Positions 19,846 to 27,938 of a stretch of 64,000 nt of DNA are shown piece after piece. Both the position numbers and the translations under genes were made by a program. Under the pieces are notes generated by a model. The model was given only the letters and a program-made list of their open reading frames with translations, was not told the DNA's origin and made no database searches. Source of the DNA: Bacillota bacterium (GTDB lineage: Bacteria > Bacillota > Sulfobacillia > JAJZYS01 > JAJYTV01); assembly GCA_021793215.1 (NCBI GenBank), contig JAJYTE010000009.1, positions 4,664-68,663 on the forward strand, written 5' to 3'. Within the stretch, counting starts at the first letter, position 1. Every line of letters starts with the position of its first letter.

Positions 19846-20346
19846 ATGCGGAGCGCCAATTCGACGAGGGGGGGGCTCGGGTTGCTGTTGCCGATGCTGT
19901 TGCTGCGGCTTCTGGTGGCGGCTCCGGTGCTGCCTGCGGGAACGCAGGCGCCGCCCGTCGCGCTGCGCCGGGCGGACGGAAGAGAAGTACACCTTCGGCT
20001 AAAGGGTCGCCCGCACCTTCTGCTGTTCTTCTCCACCTGGTGCAGGCGGTGTCCTGCATACGTCTCCTATGTTACTAGATACTCCGGACTTGAGCGACAG
20101 AACGTTGCGCTTGTCCCGATCGACCTCCTGCCGTCGGAGTTGCCGGGCGACGCGCAGGCGCTGTGGAAGCGGATCGGGCATGCGCACACGCTCTACTTCG
20201 ATCGCTACGGCGAGGTGACCCAGGCCTACCGCGTGACCGATCTGCCGACGGCAGTGCTCGTCGACGGGAAGGGACGCGTCGCGGGAGTGCTCGTGGGGGC
20301 GCAGGGCAGGAAGAGCCTTGATCACCTGCTGCGTCAGGCGCGCTAG
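19846..20346 (+). CDS. TlpA-like thioredoxin-fold protein
   Basis: Signal/anchor, FFSTWCRRC, YRVTDLPTAVLVD. Confidence 0.85.
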   Translation: MRSANSTRGGLGLLLPMLLLRLLVAAPVLPAGTQAPPVALRRADGREVHLRLKGRPHLLLFFSTWCRRCPAYVSYVTRYSGLERQNVALVPIDLLPSELPGDAQALWKRIGHAHTLYFDRYGEVTQAYRVTDLPTAVLVDGKGRVAGVLVGAQGRKSLDHLLRQAR

Positions 20347-20384
20347 GCGCCGCAGGTGCCCTCGGTCCGCTTCGCGAAGAGTAG

Positions 20385-21758
20385 GTGGCGGCGTCCACGC
20401 CGTGCCAGTTCTACCAGCGGAGGCGAACCGATCTGCGGCCGAATTTCCGGGTTCTGTCCATCTACCTTGCAGGCGTGTTCGTCGGCGCGCTCGACATGGG
20501 CATCGTGAGTCCCGCGTTCCCCCTGATCGCCAGGACCTTTCACATCACGCTCGCCTGGATGGCCTGGACCGTCACGACCTACACCGTCACCTACGTCGCC
20601 TCCACGGTGCTCTCCGGTGCGGCCGGGGACCGCTACGGCAGACGACTTCTGTTCCGGTCGGGCGTCGCGGCGTTCGGCGTCGCCTCGCTGATCGCCGCGC
20701 TCTCGCACAGCTTCGCCATCTTCCTCCTCGCCCGCGCCGTGCAGGGGCTCGGCGCCGGCGCTGTGTACCCGAACGCCCAGGCGGAGGGCGTGCGCTTCTT
20801 CCCGCCGGAGCGTCGCGGGCTAGCGCTCGGGATCTTCGGTGCCGTGTTTGGCGTTGCGAGCATGGTCGGACCGGTGATCGGCGGTGTTCTCGCGCAGTAC
20901 TTCGGCTGGCCGGCGATCTTCCTCGTGAACATCCCGATCGCCGCGCTGGTGCTGCTCGTCTCCCTGCGCCTCCCCGCGTCGGAGCGGACCGATCGCGCGG
21001 CACCCGACTTCCTCGCGGGCGTCGTGTTCGCCGTATTCCTGGCGACCGTCTTGCTCACGCTCGAGGTGGGAGGCCCCCTGCGCTGGGTGCTGCTCCTGGC
21101 CGCAGCCGCGACACTCGCCCTCTTCATCGTGCGCGAGCGGCGTCCGCGGGGCGCACCGTTCCTTGACCCGCGTGCATTCTCGGGCGTGCGCGGCGCGGCG
21201 CTCGTCCTGACCTCCGCGGTGATCGGCGTCGACATGTCGGCCGCCGTGTTCGTGCCGACGCTGGCGCAGCGCGTGCTGGGCTTCTCCACGCTGGGCTCTG
21301 GACTGTCGGTGCTGCCGGCGGCGTTCTCGGGCGCGCTGCTTTCGGGCGTCGGTGGCGTGCTCACCGACCGCCGCGGTGGACGCGTCGTGCTGCAGACCGG
21401 CCTCGCCTTCGCGCTCGTGGGTGGGGTGCTCCTCGCGCTCCCTGGGATGACGCTCTGGCGCTTCATCCTCGCGATGCTCGCCTTCGGGGTGGGGACTGCC
21501 TTCACCATGGGTGCGCCGCTCAACCGGCTGGCGCTCGCGCTGCACAGCGACGCGCAGGCGGGGGAGGCGCTCGCAAGTGTCGCCGTGTTCCGGTCCGTCG
21601 GCCTCGCGGCGGGCCCCGTCCTGCTGACGCTGGCGATGGCGTTCCATGGCTTCGAGGGCATGTTCCTCGGCGTTGCCGCCCTCTCGCTCGTCGGGGGGGT
21701 CTCGGTCCTCCTCGTGCCCGACAGCCGTACCCACGCGCGCCCCACGGGCAAGGCGTAG
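20385..21758 (+). CDS. DHA2-type (14-TM) MFS efflux transporter
   Basis: GDRYGRRLLF, ARAVQGLGAG, GPVIGG, WPAIFLVNIP. Confidence 0.9.
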   Translation: MAASTPCQFYQRRRTDLRPNFRVLSIYLAGVFVGALDMGIVSPAFPLIARTFHITLAWMAWTVTTYTVTYVASTVLSGAAGDRYGRRLLFRSGVAAFGVASLIAALSHSFAIFLLARAVQGLGAGAVYPNAQAEGVRFFPPERRGLALGIFGAVFGVASMVGPVIGGVLAQYFGWPAIFLVNIPIAALVLLVSLRLPASERTDRAAPDFLAGVVFAVFLATVLLTLEVGGPLRWVLLLAAAATLALFIVRERRPRGAPFLDPRAFSGVRGAALVLTSAVIGVDMSAAVFVPTLAQRVLGFSTLGSGLSVLPAAFSGALLSGVGGVLTDRRGGRVVLQTGLAFALVGGVLLALPGMTLWRFILAMLAFGVGTAFTMGAPLNRLALALHSDAQAGEALASVAVFRSVGLAAGPVLLTLAMAFHGFEGMFLGVAALSLVGGVSVLLVPDSRTHARPTGKA

Positions 21759-21854: not shown

Positions 21855-22532
21855 ATGCCGAGGCCTCACGCGGCGCAGTTGGGATCAGGCGGGCTCTTGA
21901 TCGCAGTCGAGGGCTGCGACGGGTCCGGCAAGAGCACGCAGATCCAGCTGCTCTACCGCTACCTTTGGCGCCTGCGCTGGCCGGTGCACCTCACCAGCTG
22001 GAACTCGAGTCCATCGGTCCACCCCCTGCAGCGCAGGGCGAAGCGCGAGCGCCTGCTGACGCCGTTGACGTTCTCGATCGTCAACGCGGCGGACTTCGCC
22101 GACCGGTACGAGCGGGAGATCCAGCCGCGCCTCGCGCTCCGCCAGATCGTGCTGTGCGACCGCTACGTCGGCACGGCGTACGCGCGCGACGGTGCCCGCG
22201 GACTGGACCCGGGGTGGGTGGAGCGCGTCTACTCCTTCGCGCGCCCGGCCGATCTCACACTGTTCTTCCACGCCCCGGTCGAGATCGCGGCAGCCCGCAT
22301 CATGGCCGCACGCCGCGTGCCGAGTTACTACGAGGCGGGGATGGACCTCGGGCTCTCGGAGGACCCGGTAGAGAGTTTCAAGATCTTTCAGGGCCGAGTG
22401 CTGCGCCGCTACGAGCAGATCGAGGCGGGCATGGGCTACGTCCGGATCGATGCGACACGCCCGATGCGCGAGCAGCAGCGGATGGTCCGCTCCCGCGTCC
22501 TCGGCCTCCTCAAAGGGGGCGAGGCGAAGTGA
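21855..22532 (+). CDS. Thymidylate-kinase-like protein, intact P-loop (PPK3-like catalytic subunit candidate)
   Basis: EGCDGSGKSTQ, DRY, YYEAGMDLG; first of a tandem pair in a polyphosphate cluster. Confidence 0.8.
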   Translation: MPRPHAAQLGSGGLLIAVEGCDGSGKSTQIQLLYRYLWRLRWPVHLTSWNSSPSVHPLQRRAKRERLLTPLTFSIVNAADFADRYEREIQPRLALRQIVLCDRYVGTAYARDGARGLDPGWVERVYSFARPADLTLFFHAPVEIAAARIMAARRVPSYYEAGMDLGLSEDPVESFKIFQGRVLRRYEQIEAGMGYVRIDATRPMREQQRMVRSRVLGLLKGGEAK

Positions 22533-23188
22533 GCGGCCTTTTGATCGCGATCGAGGGCCCGGATGGCGCGGGCCGCACGAGCCAAGCCAGGGCGCTGGCC
22601 GCTTGGCTCGAACACCGGGGGCGGGAGGTGAAGCTCCTGCGCCTCAAGCACTCGAGCCTCGCGCGGGTGACGCTCCAGGGGCTGCAGCGGCGCATGGACA
22701 TCTCGGAGCGCGCGCTCTTCCTGCTCTACGCAGCGGACCTCGCCGACCTCTGGTACGCCGAGGCAGAGCCCGCGCTCGCGGCGGGGAAGATCGTCCTCTT
22801 TGACCGCTACACGCTGACACCGCGCGTGCGGGCGAGCATTCACGGCGTGGACCCTGACTGGCTGCGCGATGCGCTCGGGTTCGTGCCGATGGCAGACCTG
22901 ACGCTTCTCCTGGAGGCGCCAGCCCGTGAGCGCCTGCGCCGCCTCTTGGCTCGCCGGCGCTTTCTGCAGCCGCGCGAGACGGGTGCACTCGCGCCGACCC
23001 CCGAGCTGATGACCCACGCGCTTCGCTACCAGCGAAGGCTCGGGCGCCTGTACGCGGAGGCCGGCGATCACGCGGGCGTCGTGCGCATCGACGCGTCGAG
23101 ATCCCCGCAGGCGGTGCAGGAGGAGGCCAGGCGCGCGGTGCAGCGCCTCCTGCGGCGCAGGTCGCGACGCGAGGAGACGCCGTCGTGA
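22529..23188 (+). CDS. Thymidylate-kinase-like paralogue, degenerate P-loop
   Basis: EGPDGAGRTSQ (K to R), FDRY; GTGA overlap with the previous gene. Confidence 0.8.
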   Translation: MSGLLIAIEGPDGAGRTSQARALAAWLEHRGREVKLLRLKHSSLARVTLQGLQRRMDISERALFLLYAADLADLWYAEAEPALAAGKIVLFDRYTLTPRVRASIHGVDPDWLRDALGFVPMADLTLLLEAPARERLRRLLARRRFLQPRETGALAPTPELMTHALRYQRRLGRLYAEAGDHAGVVRIDASRSPQAVQEEARRAVQRLLRRRSRREETPS

Positions 23189-23775
23189 GCGTCGCAGAGC
23201 GCCTCGCGGACTTCGACAGCGATGTGCTCGCGGTGTGCCGGAAGTACGCCTGCGACCTCGAGCACTCGCAGCACGTCGCGAACCTCGCCGACATCCTCTT
23301 CGACGCCTTCCTGCCGCTGCACGCCCTTTCGGACGAGGAGCGCGTCGTGCTGCGGCACGCAGCGCTCTTGCACGACATCGGCTACTTCGTCGACCGCAAG
23401 GGGCACCACCGCCACGGCGCCTACCTCGTGCGCAGCGACGAACACCTGTCGGATTACCCTTTGGACCTTCGCGACCTGTGCGCCGGAGTGGTGCGCAACC
23501 ATCGACGCCGTGCCAGGCCGGGGCCGAAGGCGATGGGCCGGCAACGGCGCGAGGCCGTGCGCTGGCTGAGCGCGCTGCTGCGCGTGGCGGACGCGCTCGA
23601 CTACGAGCACGAGCAGCGCGCCGCGATCGCGGGCGTACGGGCGCGTGGCCGCGGCTTCGAGATCCAGGTCGCGGGCCTCGACCCCTTGCGCCTTGGAGAC
23701 CGACTGCAGGCGAAGGCGGATCTCTTGGCGCAGGCGGCGGGCGGCCCGGTGCACTTCGAGAGGGAGGGCGCGTGA
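23185..23775 (+). CDS. Stand-alone HD-domain protein resembling the Ppx/GppA C-terminal domain
   Basis: HSQHVANLA, AALLHDIGYFV..GHHRHGAYL, LRVADALD. Confidence 0.85.
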   Translation: MSVAERLADFDSDVLAVCRKYACDLEHSQHVANLADILFDAFLPLHALSDEERVVLRHAALLHDIGYFVDRKGHHRHGAYLVRSDEHLSDYPLDLRDLCAGVVRNHRRRARPGPKAMGRQRREAVRWLSALLRVADALDYEHEQRAAIAGVRARGRGFEIQVAGLDPLRLGDRLQAKADLLAQAAGGPVHFEREGA

Positions 23776-25283
23776 GCGGGGTGGAGCGCAGCGCCGTGAT
23801 CGACCTCGGATCGAACTCGGTGCGCATGATGGTCGTGGAGGTCGCGCGCTCGGGCGCGTGGCGGGTGCTGGACGAGGAGCGCGCGATTCTCCGCCTCGGC
23901 GACGCCCTTGCGAGAAGGGGCGTGCTCGCGGAGGACCTCGCGCGCGCGCAGTACGTCTTCAGCGCGCTCGTGGCGCGCGCGCGCTCCCTCGGCGCGAGTC
24001 GGATCGCGGCCGTCGGGACGGCGGCCCTGCGCGACGCCCGCGACGGCGCGGCGTTCAGCGCGGCGCTGGCGCGCCAATCGAATGTGCCGATCCGCATCCT
24101 CGAAGGGGTGGAGGAGGCGGAACTCGGCTTCCTTGGCGCCATGCACACGCTCGCGGTGCACAGTGGCAACCTCGTCGACGTCGGCGGAGCGAGCAGCGAG
24201 ATCAGCCAGTTCGAGGCGCGTGCACTGCGCCGCGCCGCCAGCGCGCCCGTCGGCGCCGTGACGCTGACGCGTCGCGTGCTGCGGTCGGATCCGCCGGCGA
24301 AGGCGGAGATCGACGCGATGAAGGCGATCGCGGACGAGGCGGTGCGCGCGGCGATGCCGGACCCGGCGCAGGGGCTTCCGCTCGTCGCGCTCGGTGGCAG
24401 CTTCCGCTCGATCGCGAAGATGCACCGTGCCCAGGTCGGGTACAGCTTCCCGAGCCTTCACAACTACCGCATGCCGCCCACCGCGATCACGGAGCTGCGC
24501 GAGCGCGTTCTCAGACTGCCGCAGCACCAGCGCCTCGTCGTGCCGGGGCTCGCCGTGCACCGTGCCGAGACCGCGGCGGCGGCGTTGACGCTCGCGCAGG
24601 CGATCTCCGACCACCTGGCGCCGAGCGAGATCGTGATCAGCGGGTCCGGCCTTCGGGAGGGCATGCTTTACCAGCGCATCCTACCGGGGCAGCGCGAGAT
24701 CCCGGACGACGTCTTCGCCCCGAGCGTGCGAAACGTGCTGTTCCAGCTCGGCGAGCAGCCGGACGAGGACGTCCTGGCCTGGGCGGAGCAGCTGCTCGCG
24801 GCGCTCTCGCCGCTCCTGGGACAGGGGGAGCCCGGCATCGGCGGCGCCGCCGCGCAGCTCCGAGGCATCGGTAGGCGCGTGAACTTCTACGACCGCAACC
24901 GCCACACGTTCACGCTCGTCGCGAGCGCCCGCATCTTCGGCCTGACACACAAGCAGCAGCTCGTGCTGGCCGCCAGCGCTTCCTACGAGGGCCCGCGCCA
25001 TACGCGCGACCGCATGCAGGGCTTCGGCACGCTCGTGGACCGCGCCGACATCCTGCTTGCGCAGAGGATTGGCCTGACGGTGGCCTACGCGGAGGCGATG
25101 GCGCGCCAGGCCCCGCTATCGAGGCCGCGCATCACCGCCACGATTGAGCCGGCGCGCATCGAGCTGCGCCTCTCTGGCGTCGAGCGCCCGCCGGACGTCC
25201 CGTTCGACGAGGCGGCGCGACTTGGCGGCCAGTTCGGCAAGGTGTTCGGTCGCAAGCTCGCGGTGCGCCACGTCGACGACTAG
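23772..25283 (+). CDS. ppx: Ppx/GppA exopolyphosphatase
   Basis: IDLGSNSVRM, EEAELG, DVGGASSE, SGLREG. Confidence 0.9.
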   Translation: MSGVERSAVIDLGSNSVRMMVVEVARSGAWRVLDEERAILRLGDALARRGVLAEDLARAQYVFSALVARARSLGASRIAAVGTAALRDARDGAAFSAALARQSNVPIRILEGVEEAELGFLGAMHTLAVHSGNLVDVGGASSEISQFEARALRRAASAPVGAVTLTRRVLRSDPPAKAEIDAMKAIADEAVRAAMPDPAQGLPLVALGGSFRSIAKMHRAQVGYSFPSLHNYRMPPTAITELRERVLRLPQHQRLVVPGLAVHRAETAAAALTLAQAISDHLAPSEIVISGSGLREGMLYQRILPGQREIPDDVFAPSVRNVLFQLGEQPDEDVLAWAEQLLAALSPLLGQGEPGIGGAAAQLRGIGRRVNFYDRNRHTFTLVASARIFGLTHKQQLVLAASASYEGPRHTRDRMQGFGTLVDRADILLAQRIGLTVAYAEAMARQAPLSRPRITATIEPARIELRLSGVERPPDVPFDEAARLGGQFGKVFGRKLAVRHVDD

Positions 25284-26120: not shown

Positions 26121-26657
26121 TCATCGCCGCGCACTCGTCCCGCTGTAGCGCAAGCGGTGGCGCCGGTCGTACCGCTGCGCGCAGATCGCGCACGATACGG
26201 CCTTGCGCCCCGGGTGGCGCGTGAGCCAGTGCTCATGGCCAGCGGGACAAAGGTAAAGGTGGCGCAGGCGAGGGGACGCGGCAGCGATCCGCCGCATCAG
26301 CTCGCGGTCCGGGAAGCGTTCGAATCCCCACTCCCGCTGTAGCGCGCGAAAGAGCGGTCCGTGGCCTGCGCGCGGATGGCCCTTCTCCGCGAGATGGTAG
26401 TGGGCGAGCTCGTGGCGCAGCAGGTCCTCGCGCTGCGCCGAGCTTGCCTGCTCTAGGTAGCGTGCACTGAGCACGATGAGGTGCTTCCCGTCAGCGCAGC
26501 GGTAGTGGCCCGCAGTGCGCGCCCTCATGCGCGCCGAGCGCAGCACGATCGCGGCGCAATCCTCGCCGGTGAGGGAGCGGTAGATCGCATGCGCCTGCGC
26601 CGTGAGGTCCGGCGCGAGGCGCTGGCCGCGACCCGCGGGAGCGTCAGATCGCGGCAC
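26121..26657 (-). CDS. SprT-family metalloprotease with Zn ribbon
   Basis: RHELAH..GHGPLF; YLCPAGH..CAIC. Confidence 0.85.
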   Translation of the reverse strand: MPRSDAPAGRGQRLAPDLTAQAHAIYRSLTGEDCAAIVLRSARMRARTAGHYRCADGKHLIVLSARYLEQASSAQREDLLRHELAHYHLAEKGHPRAGHGPLFRALQREWGFERFPDRELMRRIAAASPRLRHLYLCPAGHEHWLTRHPGRKAVSCAICAQRYDRRHRLRYSGTSARR

Positions 26658-27285
26658 TGCGGTCGTCTCCCGTCGCGGCGTGAACGGTGCGGTCGATCTT
26701 GCGAAGCCGCAGTCCGTCGCCACCGTCCCGGGACTCGAGCAGGAGGACGCTCGCGTTCGGCATGCCAAGCAGGCGCCCGTCCGCGTCGCGCAGCCGGCCG
26801 AGGTGCCAGAGCAGGCTGCGCAGCGTGTGCTGGTGCGTGAAGAGCACGAGCGGCTGCGCGGGTGGCGCCTCCGCGCAGAGGCTGGAGATCAAGGTGCGGG
26901 TGCGCGCGAGGACGGCCTCGAGCGACTCGCCGCCCGGTGGCGCGATCTCGGGCTCAATGCGCCAGCGCTGGTAGACGGGATCGGCGGAGAGTTGCTCGGG
27001 GCCGCGGCCGTCCCACGCGCCGACCTCCACCTCGCGCAGCGCGCCCTCGGACTCGATGCGCGCCCCGATGCGCGCGGCGAAGGCGGACGCGGTCTCCTGC
27101 GTGCGGCGGAAGGGACTCGCGTAGACGACGGTGGGGGCGAGGTCCCACCCGGTGAGGAGATCCGCAAGGCGCCGCGCCTGCAGCGCTCCGAGGGCCGTGA
27201 GCGGGGCTCCTGGCGGCGTCGAGTCGAACCGGCGATCGACGTTCGCCTCGCTCTCGGCGTGCCGCACTACGTATATGTCGCGCAA
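26644..27285 (-). CDS. Histidine phosphatase family protein
   Basis: YVVRHAES, SPFRRTQETA, LREVEVGAWDG, GGES, FTH. Confidence 0.9.
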   Translation of the reverse strand: MRDIYVVRHAESEANVDRRFDSTPPGAPLTALGALQARRLADLLTGWDLAPTVVYASPFRRTQETASAFAARIGARIESEGALREVEVGAWDGRGPEQLSADPVYQRWRIEPEIAPPGGESLEAVLARTRTLISSLCAEAPPAQPLVLFTHQHTLRSLLWHLGRLRDADGRLLGMPNASVLLLESRDGGDGLRLRKIDRTVHAATGDDRSAAI

Positions 27286-27401
27286 ACGCACACCTCGCTT
27301 CGCTCGGCTACAGTCCGCTTCCGTTCCTGCAGGGCAAGATCCTGCAGGAACGGCGCTCGCCCGCCTCCAGGTAGAAGGAGGTGGGCGAGCGGGAGCGCGC
27401 A

Positions 27402-27938
27402 TTACACGAAAACGAGCAGGTGCATGAGGATGGGCGCGCCGGACGCCTCCACGCGAATCTCAAACAGGCTCGCCTTCGCCGATGCGCCAGCGAGCGCGGC
27501 GGTCGACTCGACGATCGCGGCCTGCATGTCGACGGTGGAGACGGGCGGAGCCGGCACGCCGGCAGGGGCGGCGAACCGCTCCAGCGCGGCGAGGTAGCGG
27601 GCAGCGACGATCATGCCGACCTCGCGGCAGGCGTCGAGCAGTCGTTCCTGCGGTGCGTCGCCCTCGCCGAGCAGATCGCCGACCCGGCGCGCGTCCTGCG
27701 GACGCAGAAGGAGCAAAAGGCACCCGGTCGCAGGTGCTCCCGCCGTGACGAGTACCCCGACCTCTGGCTCCTCCGGCGTTTTGGAGAACTCCTCGGCCTG
27801 CGCGATCGCCGGCAGACCGCGTCGAAGTTCGCGCGTGCGCACCGGCACGGCGAATAGATCCGTGAGCGCGTGGTCGAGATCCTGCAGGTCGTCGCGGCGC
27901 CCGGGGAGGAACGCGATGTCGGCCGTGCCGAGGACCAC
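27402..27938 (-). CDS. Orphan CheC-like protein (start uncertain)
   Basis: DACREVGMIVAARYLAAL and PVSTVDMQAAIV resemble CheC SALKEIGNILAGSYLNAL and VDMAGAIL. Confidence 0.6.
   Translation of the reverse strand: MVLGTADIAFLPGRRDDLQDLDHALTDLFAVPVRTRELRRGLPAIAQAEEFSKTPEEPEVGVLVTAGAPATGCLLLLLRPQDARRVGDLLGEGDAPQERLLDACREVGMIVAARYLAALERFAAPAGVPAPPVSTVDMQAAIVESTAALAGASAKASLFEIRVEASGAPILMHLLVFV

Follow-up and report, generated by a model that had tools for sequence, protein, structure and literature searches.

A tandem pair of thymidylate-kinase-like genes in a Bacillota polyphosphate locus as a probable bacterial family-3 polyphosphate kinase

Family-3 polyphosphate kinase (PPK3) of Sulfolobus acidocaldarius is a heteromer formed by a catalytic subunit, Saci_2019, and a regulatory subunit, Saci_2020 (Hofmann et al., J Biol Chem 2026, PMC12995831; preprint 10.1101/2024.08.28.610084). 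The α2β2 complex carries out reversible phosphotransfer between ATP and polyphosphate (polyP), with Saci_2019 making polyP from ATP and ATP from ADP plus polyP, showing no dTMP kinase activity, and the enzyme making weak use of GDP (PMC12995831). Saci_2019 has some activity alone, and Saci_2020 forms a complex with it and stimulates it, raising the kcat of the catalytic subunit several-fold; the inactivity of the regulatory subunit (rPPK3) is itself explained by loss of the arginine of the DRX motif (PMC12995831). The genes at the S. acidocaldarius locus run in the order ppx, a 213-aa catalytic gene and an overlapping 210-aa partner gene. A homologue of the catalytic subunit, STK_15430, has been crystallised, and most carriers of PPK3 are without PPK1 and PPK2 (PMC12995831). 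The family has been described in “a few taxonomically scattered bacteria”, bacterial operons have already been predicted to encode it, and histidine phosphatases of the SixA/PhoE type are among the polyphosphate-operon neighbours listed for it (PMC12995831).

The locus considered here lies in what we call the window, the whole 64-kb stretch of Bacillota DNA that was analysed, and its genes are collected in Table 1. Four plus-strand genes, encoding A, B, an HD protein and an exopolyphosphatase (ppx), form a chain in which each junction is a 4-nt GTGA overlap of stop and start, and a Shine-Dalgarno-like GGAGG, GAGGAG or GGGAGGG stands 4–12 nt before each start. The stop codons of ppx and ppk2 overlap within one CTAG. 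A preliminary description of this DNA had reported a coupled pair of genes with the fold of thymidylate kinase (TMK), one with an intact GSGKST and one with a degenerate GAGRTS P-loop, chained to an HD protein and ppx and abutted by ppk2, and each element of that picture was borne out, with PF02223 matched by both members of the pair. The polyphosphate genes comprise ppx, within the overlapping chain, and ppk2, which is adjacent to it along with a gene of the His_Phos_1 family. No PPK1 was found among the large ORFs elsewhere in the 64-kb window, nor any third TMK-like gene within it. Several other large ORFs in the window, which match no family, are probably spurious frames of high-GC DNA.

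Table 1. Genes of the polyphosphate locus and its flanks, with coordinates given as positions in the window.
Feature	Coordinates	Strand	Remarks
AhpC/TSA-like redoxin	19846..20346	+	Conserved upstream of A (eight related Bacillota loci)
MFS transporter	20385..21758	+	Directly upstream of A; conserved there in the eight loci as well
Gene A: cPPK3-like catalytic subunit, 225 aa	21855..22532	+	ATG start; P-loop GSGKST, DRY, PF02223
Gene B: rPPK3-like partner subunit, 219 aa	22529..23188	+	GTG start overlapping A stop; GAGRTS, DRY
HD protein, 196 aa	23185..23775	+	Ppx-GppA domain III plus HD; overlaps B and ppx, with translational coupling to both
ppx: Ppx/GppA-family exopolyphosphatase, 503 aa	23772..25283	+	Ppx-GppA Pfam match, 155 bits
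ppk2: single-domain PPK2, class-III-like, 267 aa	25280..26083	-	PF03976 and TIGR03709; convergent with ppx
Histidine phosphatase (His_Phos_1)	26644..27402	-	Context gene; also present in L002

Judging by their overlaps, the four chained genes are probably co-transcribed. The MFS gene is separated from A by a 96-nt gap, and because a consensus scan detected no sigma-70-like promoter upstream of A, the operon may begin at the conserved MFS or AhpC genes, both of which may be co-transcribed with it. The scan also returned two terminator-like matches, both inside genes and at the frequency expected by chance. In public runs labelled RNA-Seq, contigs span the whole 8-kb region evenly, neighbouring genes included; with coverage this flat, the reads may be DNA and say nothing on co-transcription. 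The runs in which the sequence is present come from mine tailings, mine drainage and aquifers.

One explanation would make A and B a duplicated pair of ordinary dTMP kinases, standing beside polyphosphate genes by happenstance. Both proteins do match the Pfam family Thymidylate_kin (PF02223; 63 bits for A and 74 bits for B), their homologues carry the name “dTMP kinase” in public databases, and a structural model of B superposes on the A. aeolicus TMK nearly as well as on an archaeal PPK3 relative (5h70). However, both score below the cut-off of the TIGR00041 dTMP kinase equivalog (62.3 and 62.4 bits for A and B, respectively, against 83.25), and the dTMP site has been replaced throughout. When 19 A-type and 19 B-type proteins were aligned with 25 canonical ones, the R-E-P-G-G motif, found in 22–24 of the 25 canonical enzymes, reads S-W-N-S-S in A and is likewise absent from B; E. 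coli R78 (24/25) is replaced by F81 in A and by L71 in B, and Y108-Q109, invariant in the canonical set (25/25), is R111-D112 in A and R101-A102 in B. R78, Y108 and Q109 are established dTMP-contacting residues of TMK. B also lacks the P-loop lysine.

The same division was recovered from trees and searches. In a maximum-likelihood tree, the 25 canonical Tmks were split from the 38 A and B proteins with 99% SH-aLRT support, and a clade of A-type proteins, also with 99% SH-aLRT support, held the window's A together with Saci_2019 and STK_15430; the B-type proteins, including the window's B and Saci_2020, were basal and did not resolve within the PPK3 side. A reverse search of the PDB with E. coli Tmk (b1098, from NC_000913.3) found 36 distinct canonical TMK sequences at E ≤ 1e-5, and STK_15430 was not among the matches at that threshold. 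The preliminary description had looked to reciprocal search and phylogeny against archaeal PPK3 and true Tmk, and both place A with STK_15430 and Saci_2019 and apart from the canonical enzymes. Moreover, the characterised orthologue is without dTMP kinase activity (PMC12995831). Canonical dTMP kinase (TIGR00041 / EC 2.7.4.9) was rejected for A and for B on the sub-cut-off scores and the absence of R78, Y108, Q109 and REPGG from both, and a chance placement of duplicated dTMP kinases is considered extremely improbable.

By sequence, A is an orthologue-grade relative of the PPK3 catalytic subunit. Its best match among solved structures is STK_15430 of Sulfurisphaera tokodaii (2plr/5h70; 168.6 bits, E 1.3e-48), while every solved canonical TMK scores ≤52 bits, and it is 43% identical to Saci_2019. 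Against profiles built leaving out the window's close relatives, A scores 277 bits with the catalytic, 168 with the partner and 87 with the canonical profile. Its P-loop, G-C-D-G-S-G-K-S-T, carries the lysine (K26), the DRY motif is intact (R103), and the nucleotide-site residues K26, D22, D102 and R103 are all kept. It also bears the signature of catalytic subunits (W49-N-S-S, F81, R84 and R111-D112), and it has every one of the basic residues that set the A family apart (K63, R84, R87, R111, R153 and R212), with K/R opposite them in Saci_2019. The predicted activity of A is read across from this 43% identity to one characterised enzyme.

B departs from A at its P-loop, G-P-D-G-A-G-R-T-S, in which an arginine (R16) occupies the lysine position, and its DRY motif is intact (R93). 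The best match among solved structures is again STK_15430, here at 86 bits, and the profile scores are 159 bits for partner, 126 for catalytic and 92 for canonical. Identity to Saci_2020 is 34% across 146 residues. An AlphaFold2 model of B (pLDDT 90.6) has TMK topology, with 5h70 as its top structural match (TM 0.83). Comparison with three relatives gave dN/dS values of 0.22–0.43 for B and 0.13–0.21 for A, figures that indicate purifying selection and are rough because dS is near saturation. On this evidence, B folds and is under constraint.

In GTDB species genomes, a scan yielded 143 confirmed stretches, of which 80 loci were kept for synteny counts, and at E ≤ 1e-30 a library-wide HMMER search matched 140 clusters (50% identity). 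In 76 of the 80 loci, the A-type gene is directly followed by a second gene with the TMK fold, usually with ppx adjacent, so the tandem arrangement is not due to chance. The closest relatives of the window's locus are found in uncultured Bacillota MAGs, at 80% identity; other carriers include many Acidobacteriota (Acidiferrales), along with Thermoplasmata, Chloroflexota, Binataceae, Geobacteraceae and Planctomycetota. The order of catalytic gene then partner, with ppx adjacent, is also seen in S. acidocaldarius and Nitrososphaera. Among the 80 loci, the complete A-B-HD-ppx order is confined to a high-GC Bacillota clade (L002–L011 and L036), in which a convergent ppk2 occurs in six loci and the AhpC-like and MFS genes stand upstream in eight.

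The altered P-loop of B proved to be shared by its family. The lysine position is Arg in 72 of 76 partners and Cys in the other four, which rules out the notion that B's degenerate P-loop is a local oddity, and all but a few partners keep DRY; that of Nitrososphaera (L085), for example, combines an Arg P-loop with DRY just as B does. Replacement of the P-loop lysine by arginine is, across the sequences compared, a conserved signature of partner subunits. The published disabling feature, replacement of the DRX arginine, is absent in B, which is instead without the P-loop lysine. Since 72 of 76 partners have the Lys-to-Arg change with DRY kept, loss of the DRX arginine appears to be specific to Saci_2020, the sole Sulfolobales partner compared, and not family-defining. 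A conserved arginine at this position suggests to us a site that continues to bind phosphate or nucleotide but does not catalyse, and because the DRY arginine is retained, B might keep some activity or bind nucleotide.

These features of B lend some weight to a second explanation, in which A alone is a polyP kinase and B is a phosphate- or nucleotide-binding protein, such as a sensor of ATP/ADP or polyP, or a weak kinase for another substrate. B keeps DRY, the near-uniform arginine looks like selection rather than decay, and Saci_2019 is partly active by itself (PMC12995831). A and B genes, however, are strictly adjacent and often overlapping across phyla, natural fusions of the two exist, and in S. 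acidocaldarius the partner complexes with and stimulates the catalytic subunit (PMC12995831). Independent action of A is regarded as unlikely, and an activating partner remains the preferred role for B.

Fusions also bear on the third gene of the chain. The HD protein aligns to residues 344–523 of a solved 535-aa exopolyphosphatase (E 2e-21) and matches Ppx-GppA domain III plus HD in Pfam, making it a free-standing version of the module (Ppx-GppA domain III/IV) that forms the C-terminus of exopolyphosphatases; its H...HD...D motif is intact. Domain III at the C-terminus of the PPX encoded next to it is divergent, with a weak Pfam match and LRGIG where the stand-alone HD protein has LHDIG, and direct BLASTP of the HD protein against the PPX C-terminus gave no significant match. 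In other genomes, the three modules occur in single proteins of 621–696 aa (P0131, P0139, P0148 and P0161, mutually divergent cluster representatives), which run from an A-like domain through a B-like domain with a degenerate P-loop to an HD domain, the same order as the window's genes; P0127 is an A-B fusion. Altogether, A-B and A-B-HD fusions fall into at least four divergent clusters, and an ORF identical to P0131 was present in two independent samples. Joined in one chain, the modules argue for physical cooperation of A, B and HD, the A-B fusions lend indirect support to a heteromeric assembly, and the HD protein probably belongs to the PPK3 system and is not a bystander.

A third explanation is that the A/B pair acts on guanosine polyphosphate or another nucleotide and not on polyP. 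Hydrolysis of pppGpp is within the range of Ppx/GppA enzymes, HD domains are known from (p)ppGpp hydrolases, and the window's ppx falls below the “exo_poly_only” cut-off (240 versus 307 bits). Yet the matches of the HD protein in Pfam, NCBIfam and solved structures include the PPX C-terminal module and no family of the RelA/SpoT type, and cPPK3-like domains elsewhere are fused to SPX, inorganic pyrophosphatase and NUDIX domains, which point to phosphate or polyP chemistry. A PPK2 also lies at the locus: ppk2 (P0005) scores 258.5 bits with PF03976 (cut-off 22.3) and 373.1 bits with TIGR03709 (cut-off 247.2), and its nearest structures were deposited as polyphosphate:AMP phosphotransferases, among them 5lc9 (274.6 bits), which we take to be the class III PPK2 of Meiothermus ruber. 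Finally, the archetype PPK3 uses polyP (PMC12995831). A guanosine-nucleotide role for the pair is therefore judged very unlikely, and polyP is retained as the expected substrate.

The favoured interpretation, to which we assign a probability of roughly 80%, is that A and B form a bacterial PPK3, with A as the catalytic subunit and B as its activating partner, encoded with the HD protein and PPX and with PPK2 at the same locus. The preliminary description had already proposed as much, pointing to the heteromeric PPK3 that S. acidocaldarius makes from a TMK-annotated pair, and that enzyme is documented (Hofmann et al., PMC12995831). Its reading of the pair as a PPK3-type kinase is supported by the margin between archaeal and canonical structures (168.6 versus ≤52 bits), the 99% SH-aLRT split, the lost dTMP site and the 76/80 synteny; its warning about mis-annotation is justified by the names that homologues carry; and its pairing of PPK3 with PPK2 at one locus appears sound, given a ppk2 above both family cut-offs beside the pair.

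Homology, clade placement, motif pattern, synteny, purifying selection and gene fusions are what the analysis establishes; we infer the activity of the complex, its stoichiometry, its direction in vivo and the role of the HD protein. A would have a TMK fold with P-loop lysine and DRY arginine in which a basic cleft replaces the dTMP pocket, and it would move the terminal phosphate between ATP/ADP and polyP. By analogy with SaPPK3, a low ATP/ADP ratio would favour ADP + polyP(n) → ATP + polyP(n-1), and a high ratio would favour polyP synthesis. B, as a catalytically impaired paralogue with its P-loop Lys-to-Arg change, would assemble with A, scaffold it and activate it. The HD module and PPX would handle the polyP chain, completing an operon for synthesis, mobilisation and degradation, and the class-III-like PPK2 would add polyP-driven phosphorylation of AMP/ADP. 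Work on the C-terminal domains of E. coli PPX is the basis for proposing that the HD module could bind the polyP chain. It is tempting to go further and suggest that PPK3 in this Bacillota lineage is a three-part machine of A, B and HD, in which the Arg P-loop of B has been selected to bind ATP/ADP or the polyP end without turnover and so sets the direction of the reaction, and in which HD holds, feeds or trims the chain; this extension is tentative, and we think it more doubtful than probable. Were it true, the single-chain A-B-HD proteins would mark a PPK3 architecture not recognised before.

The pair is less novel than the preliminary description assumed, because bacterial PPK3 operons had already been predicted (PMC12995831). 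Both the family and its bacterial operons are known, and the window's pair would be a further bacterial PPK3 and not a new kind of enzyme (PMC12995831). Three points go beyond the PPK3 paper: the partner signature of a P-loop Lys-to-Arg change with DRY, to which the DRX loss of Saci_2020 is the exception; the natural A-B-HD fusions that tie the HD protein to PPK3; and a Bacillota clade that carries a class-III-like PPK2 at the locus. What is added is a well-defined clade of bacteria, a corrected partner signature and a probable third component. Biochemistry of PPK3 has so far come from one thermoacidophilic archaeon, and the locus offers a clear bacterial example from a Bacillota organism of mine tailings. 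The 143 stretches and 140 clusters suggest that the family is broader than reported, and as dTMP kinase is the routine annotation for its members, the polyphosphate metabolism of these genomes is under-called. Direct, inexpensive hypotheses on how the regulatory subunit and an accessory polyP-binding module work follow from the partner's Lys-to-Arg P-loop and from the A-B-HD fusions. Enzymes of the PPK type are used for ATP regeneration, which lends practical interest to bacterial PPK3 variants.

Among described systems, canonical Tmk shares with A and B the P-loop kinase fold, the DRY/DRX motif and the lid region. Its dTMP-binding REPGG, R78 and Y108-Q109 are missing from A and B, and the PPK3-clade proteins differ from it further by an extra insertion of ~12 residues after the lid (YYEAGMDLGLSEDP in A). 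The class III PPK2 5lc9 resembles the neighbouring ppk2; its family is not that of A and B. The top solved relative of both A and B is STK_15430 (ST1543; 2plr, 4nzy, 4rzx and 5h70), which was deposited as “dTMP kinase”; it is an archaeal catalytic subunit crystallised alone, without a solved partner or a polyP complex. SaPPK3 resembles the window's pair in fold, in its overlapping catalytic-then-partner genes beside ppx, in the A-family basic residues and in loss of the dTMP site. The two differ in the partner, since Saci_2020 keeps a GKT P-loop (GKTT) and has DGY for DRY, whereas B has GRT and DRY. They differ also in surroundings, with SixA and CHAD as neighbours in S. acidocaldarius and the HD protein, PPX and PPK2 as neighbours in the window, where tblastn found no homologue of CHAD or SixA. 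The host of SaPPK3 is archaeal, and that of the window is a bacterium with an additional PPK2, so PPK3 is not required here as the sole polyP:nucleotide enzyme; as most PPK3 carriers are without PPK1 and PPK2 (PMC12995831), the high-GC Bacillota clade with PPK2 is in the minority. Also similar are the predicted PPK3 operons of other bacteria and archaea, including Nitrososphaera (L085), Acidobacteriota, Thermoplasmata and Chloroflexota, whose partners share with B the G-R-[ST]-T plus DRY signature. Compared with predicted PPK3 operons elsewhere, those of the high-GC Bacillota clade have an additional, separate HD gene, placed between B and ppx.

Domain III of the window Ppx protein (residues ~359–431) is divergent and lacks the HD dyad, reading LRGIG, while a separate gene just upstream of ppx encodes an intact copy of the PPX C-terminal module. 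The PPX C-terminus thus looks to have undergone duplication or fission in this clade.

A module of this kind recurs in fused PPK3-like proteins among the cluster representatives of a library-wide HMMER search. In four cluster representatives (P0131, P0139, P0148 and P0161), one polypeptide joins a cPPK3-like domain to an rPPK3-like domain whose P-loop is degenerate and to a PPX-domain-III/HD region; another, P0127, is a two-domain fusion of A-like (catalytic) and B-like (partner) parts. In L167, the single-chain fusion gene is preceded by two CotH genes and followed by an MgtC/DUF4956 gene, and no ppx was called in its fetched flanks (5 kb upstream and ~3.7 kb downstream). Further HMMER hits (P0159, P0164, P0188, P0190 and P0265) are large multidomain proteins in which the cPPK3-like domain occurs in a set that also includes SPX, DUF2252, MFS, inorganic pyrophosphatase (InPase), NUDIX and ART-PolyVal domains, partners that are mostly phosphate-related.

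Features of the window and of a fusion-encoding locus
Feature	Location	Strand	Remark
AhpC/TSA-like redoxin + MFS transporter	window 19846-21758		directly upstream of PPK3 genes
ppx	window 23772-25283	+	
SprT-like metallopeptidase ORF	window 26121-26768	-	
His_Phos_1 phosphatase ORF	window 26644-27402	-	
single-chain fusion gene	L167:5001-7091		also in L168

Upstream, the redoxin and MFS pair is kept next to the PPK3 genes in eight related Bacillota loci. Only 96 nt separate the end of the MFS gene from gene A, the probable catalytic-subunit gene, and a promoter-like site was not found in this interval. At the other end, the TAG stops of the convergent ppx and ppk2 genes overlap in the palindrome CTAG (25280-25283), so a terminator could not fit between the two genes. 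Beyond ppk2, the SprT-like and His_Phos_1 ORFs as listed have ~125 nt in common, and one or the other is therefore probably shorter than listed; both genes also occur in the related locus L002.

Near-identical matches to window 21855-25283 were present in public runs X1-X8, from mine-tailings, mine-drainage and aquifer metagenomes, an indication that this uncultured high-GC Bacillota lineage lives in the subsurface, in acid or metal-rich settings.

Finally, rPPK3s have been published as lacking the DRX arginine (PMC12995831). Saci_2020 (L082:5621-6253), the rPPK3 of Sulfolobus acidocaldarius, agrees with this loss, whereas most of the partners compared here (from loci L002-L081, L085 and L086) do not: 72 of 76 replace the P-loop Lys with Arg and keep DRY, and the four with Cys in place of that Lys are all from Bacillota.
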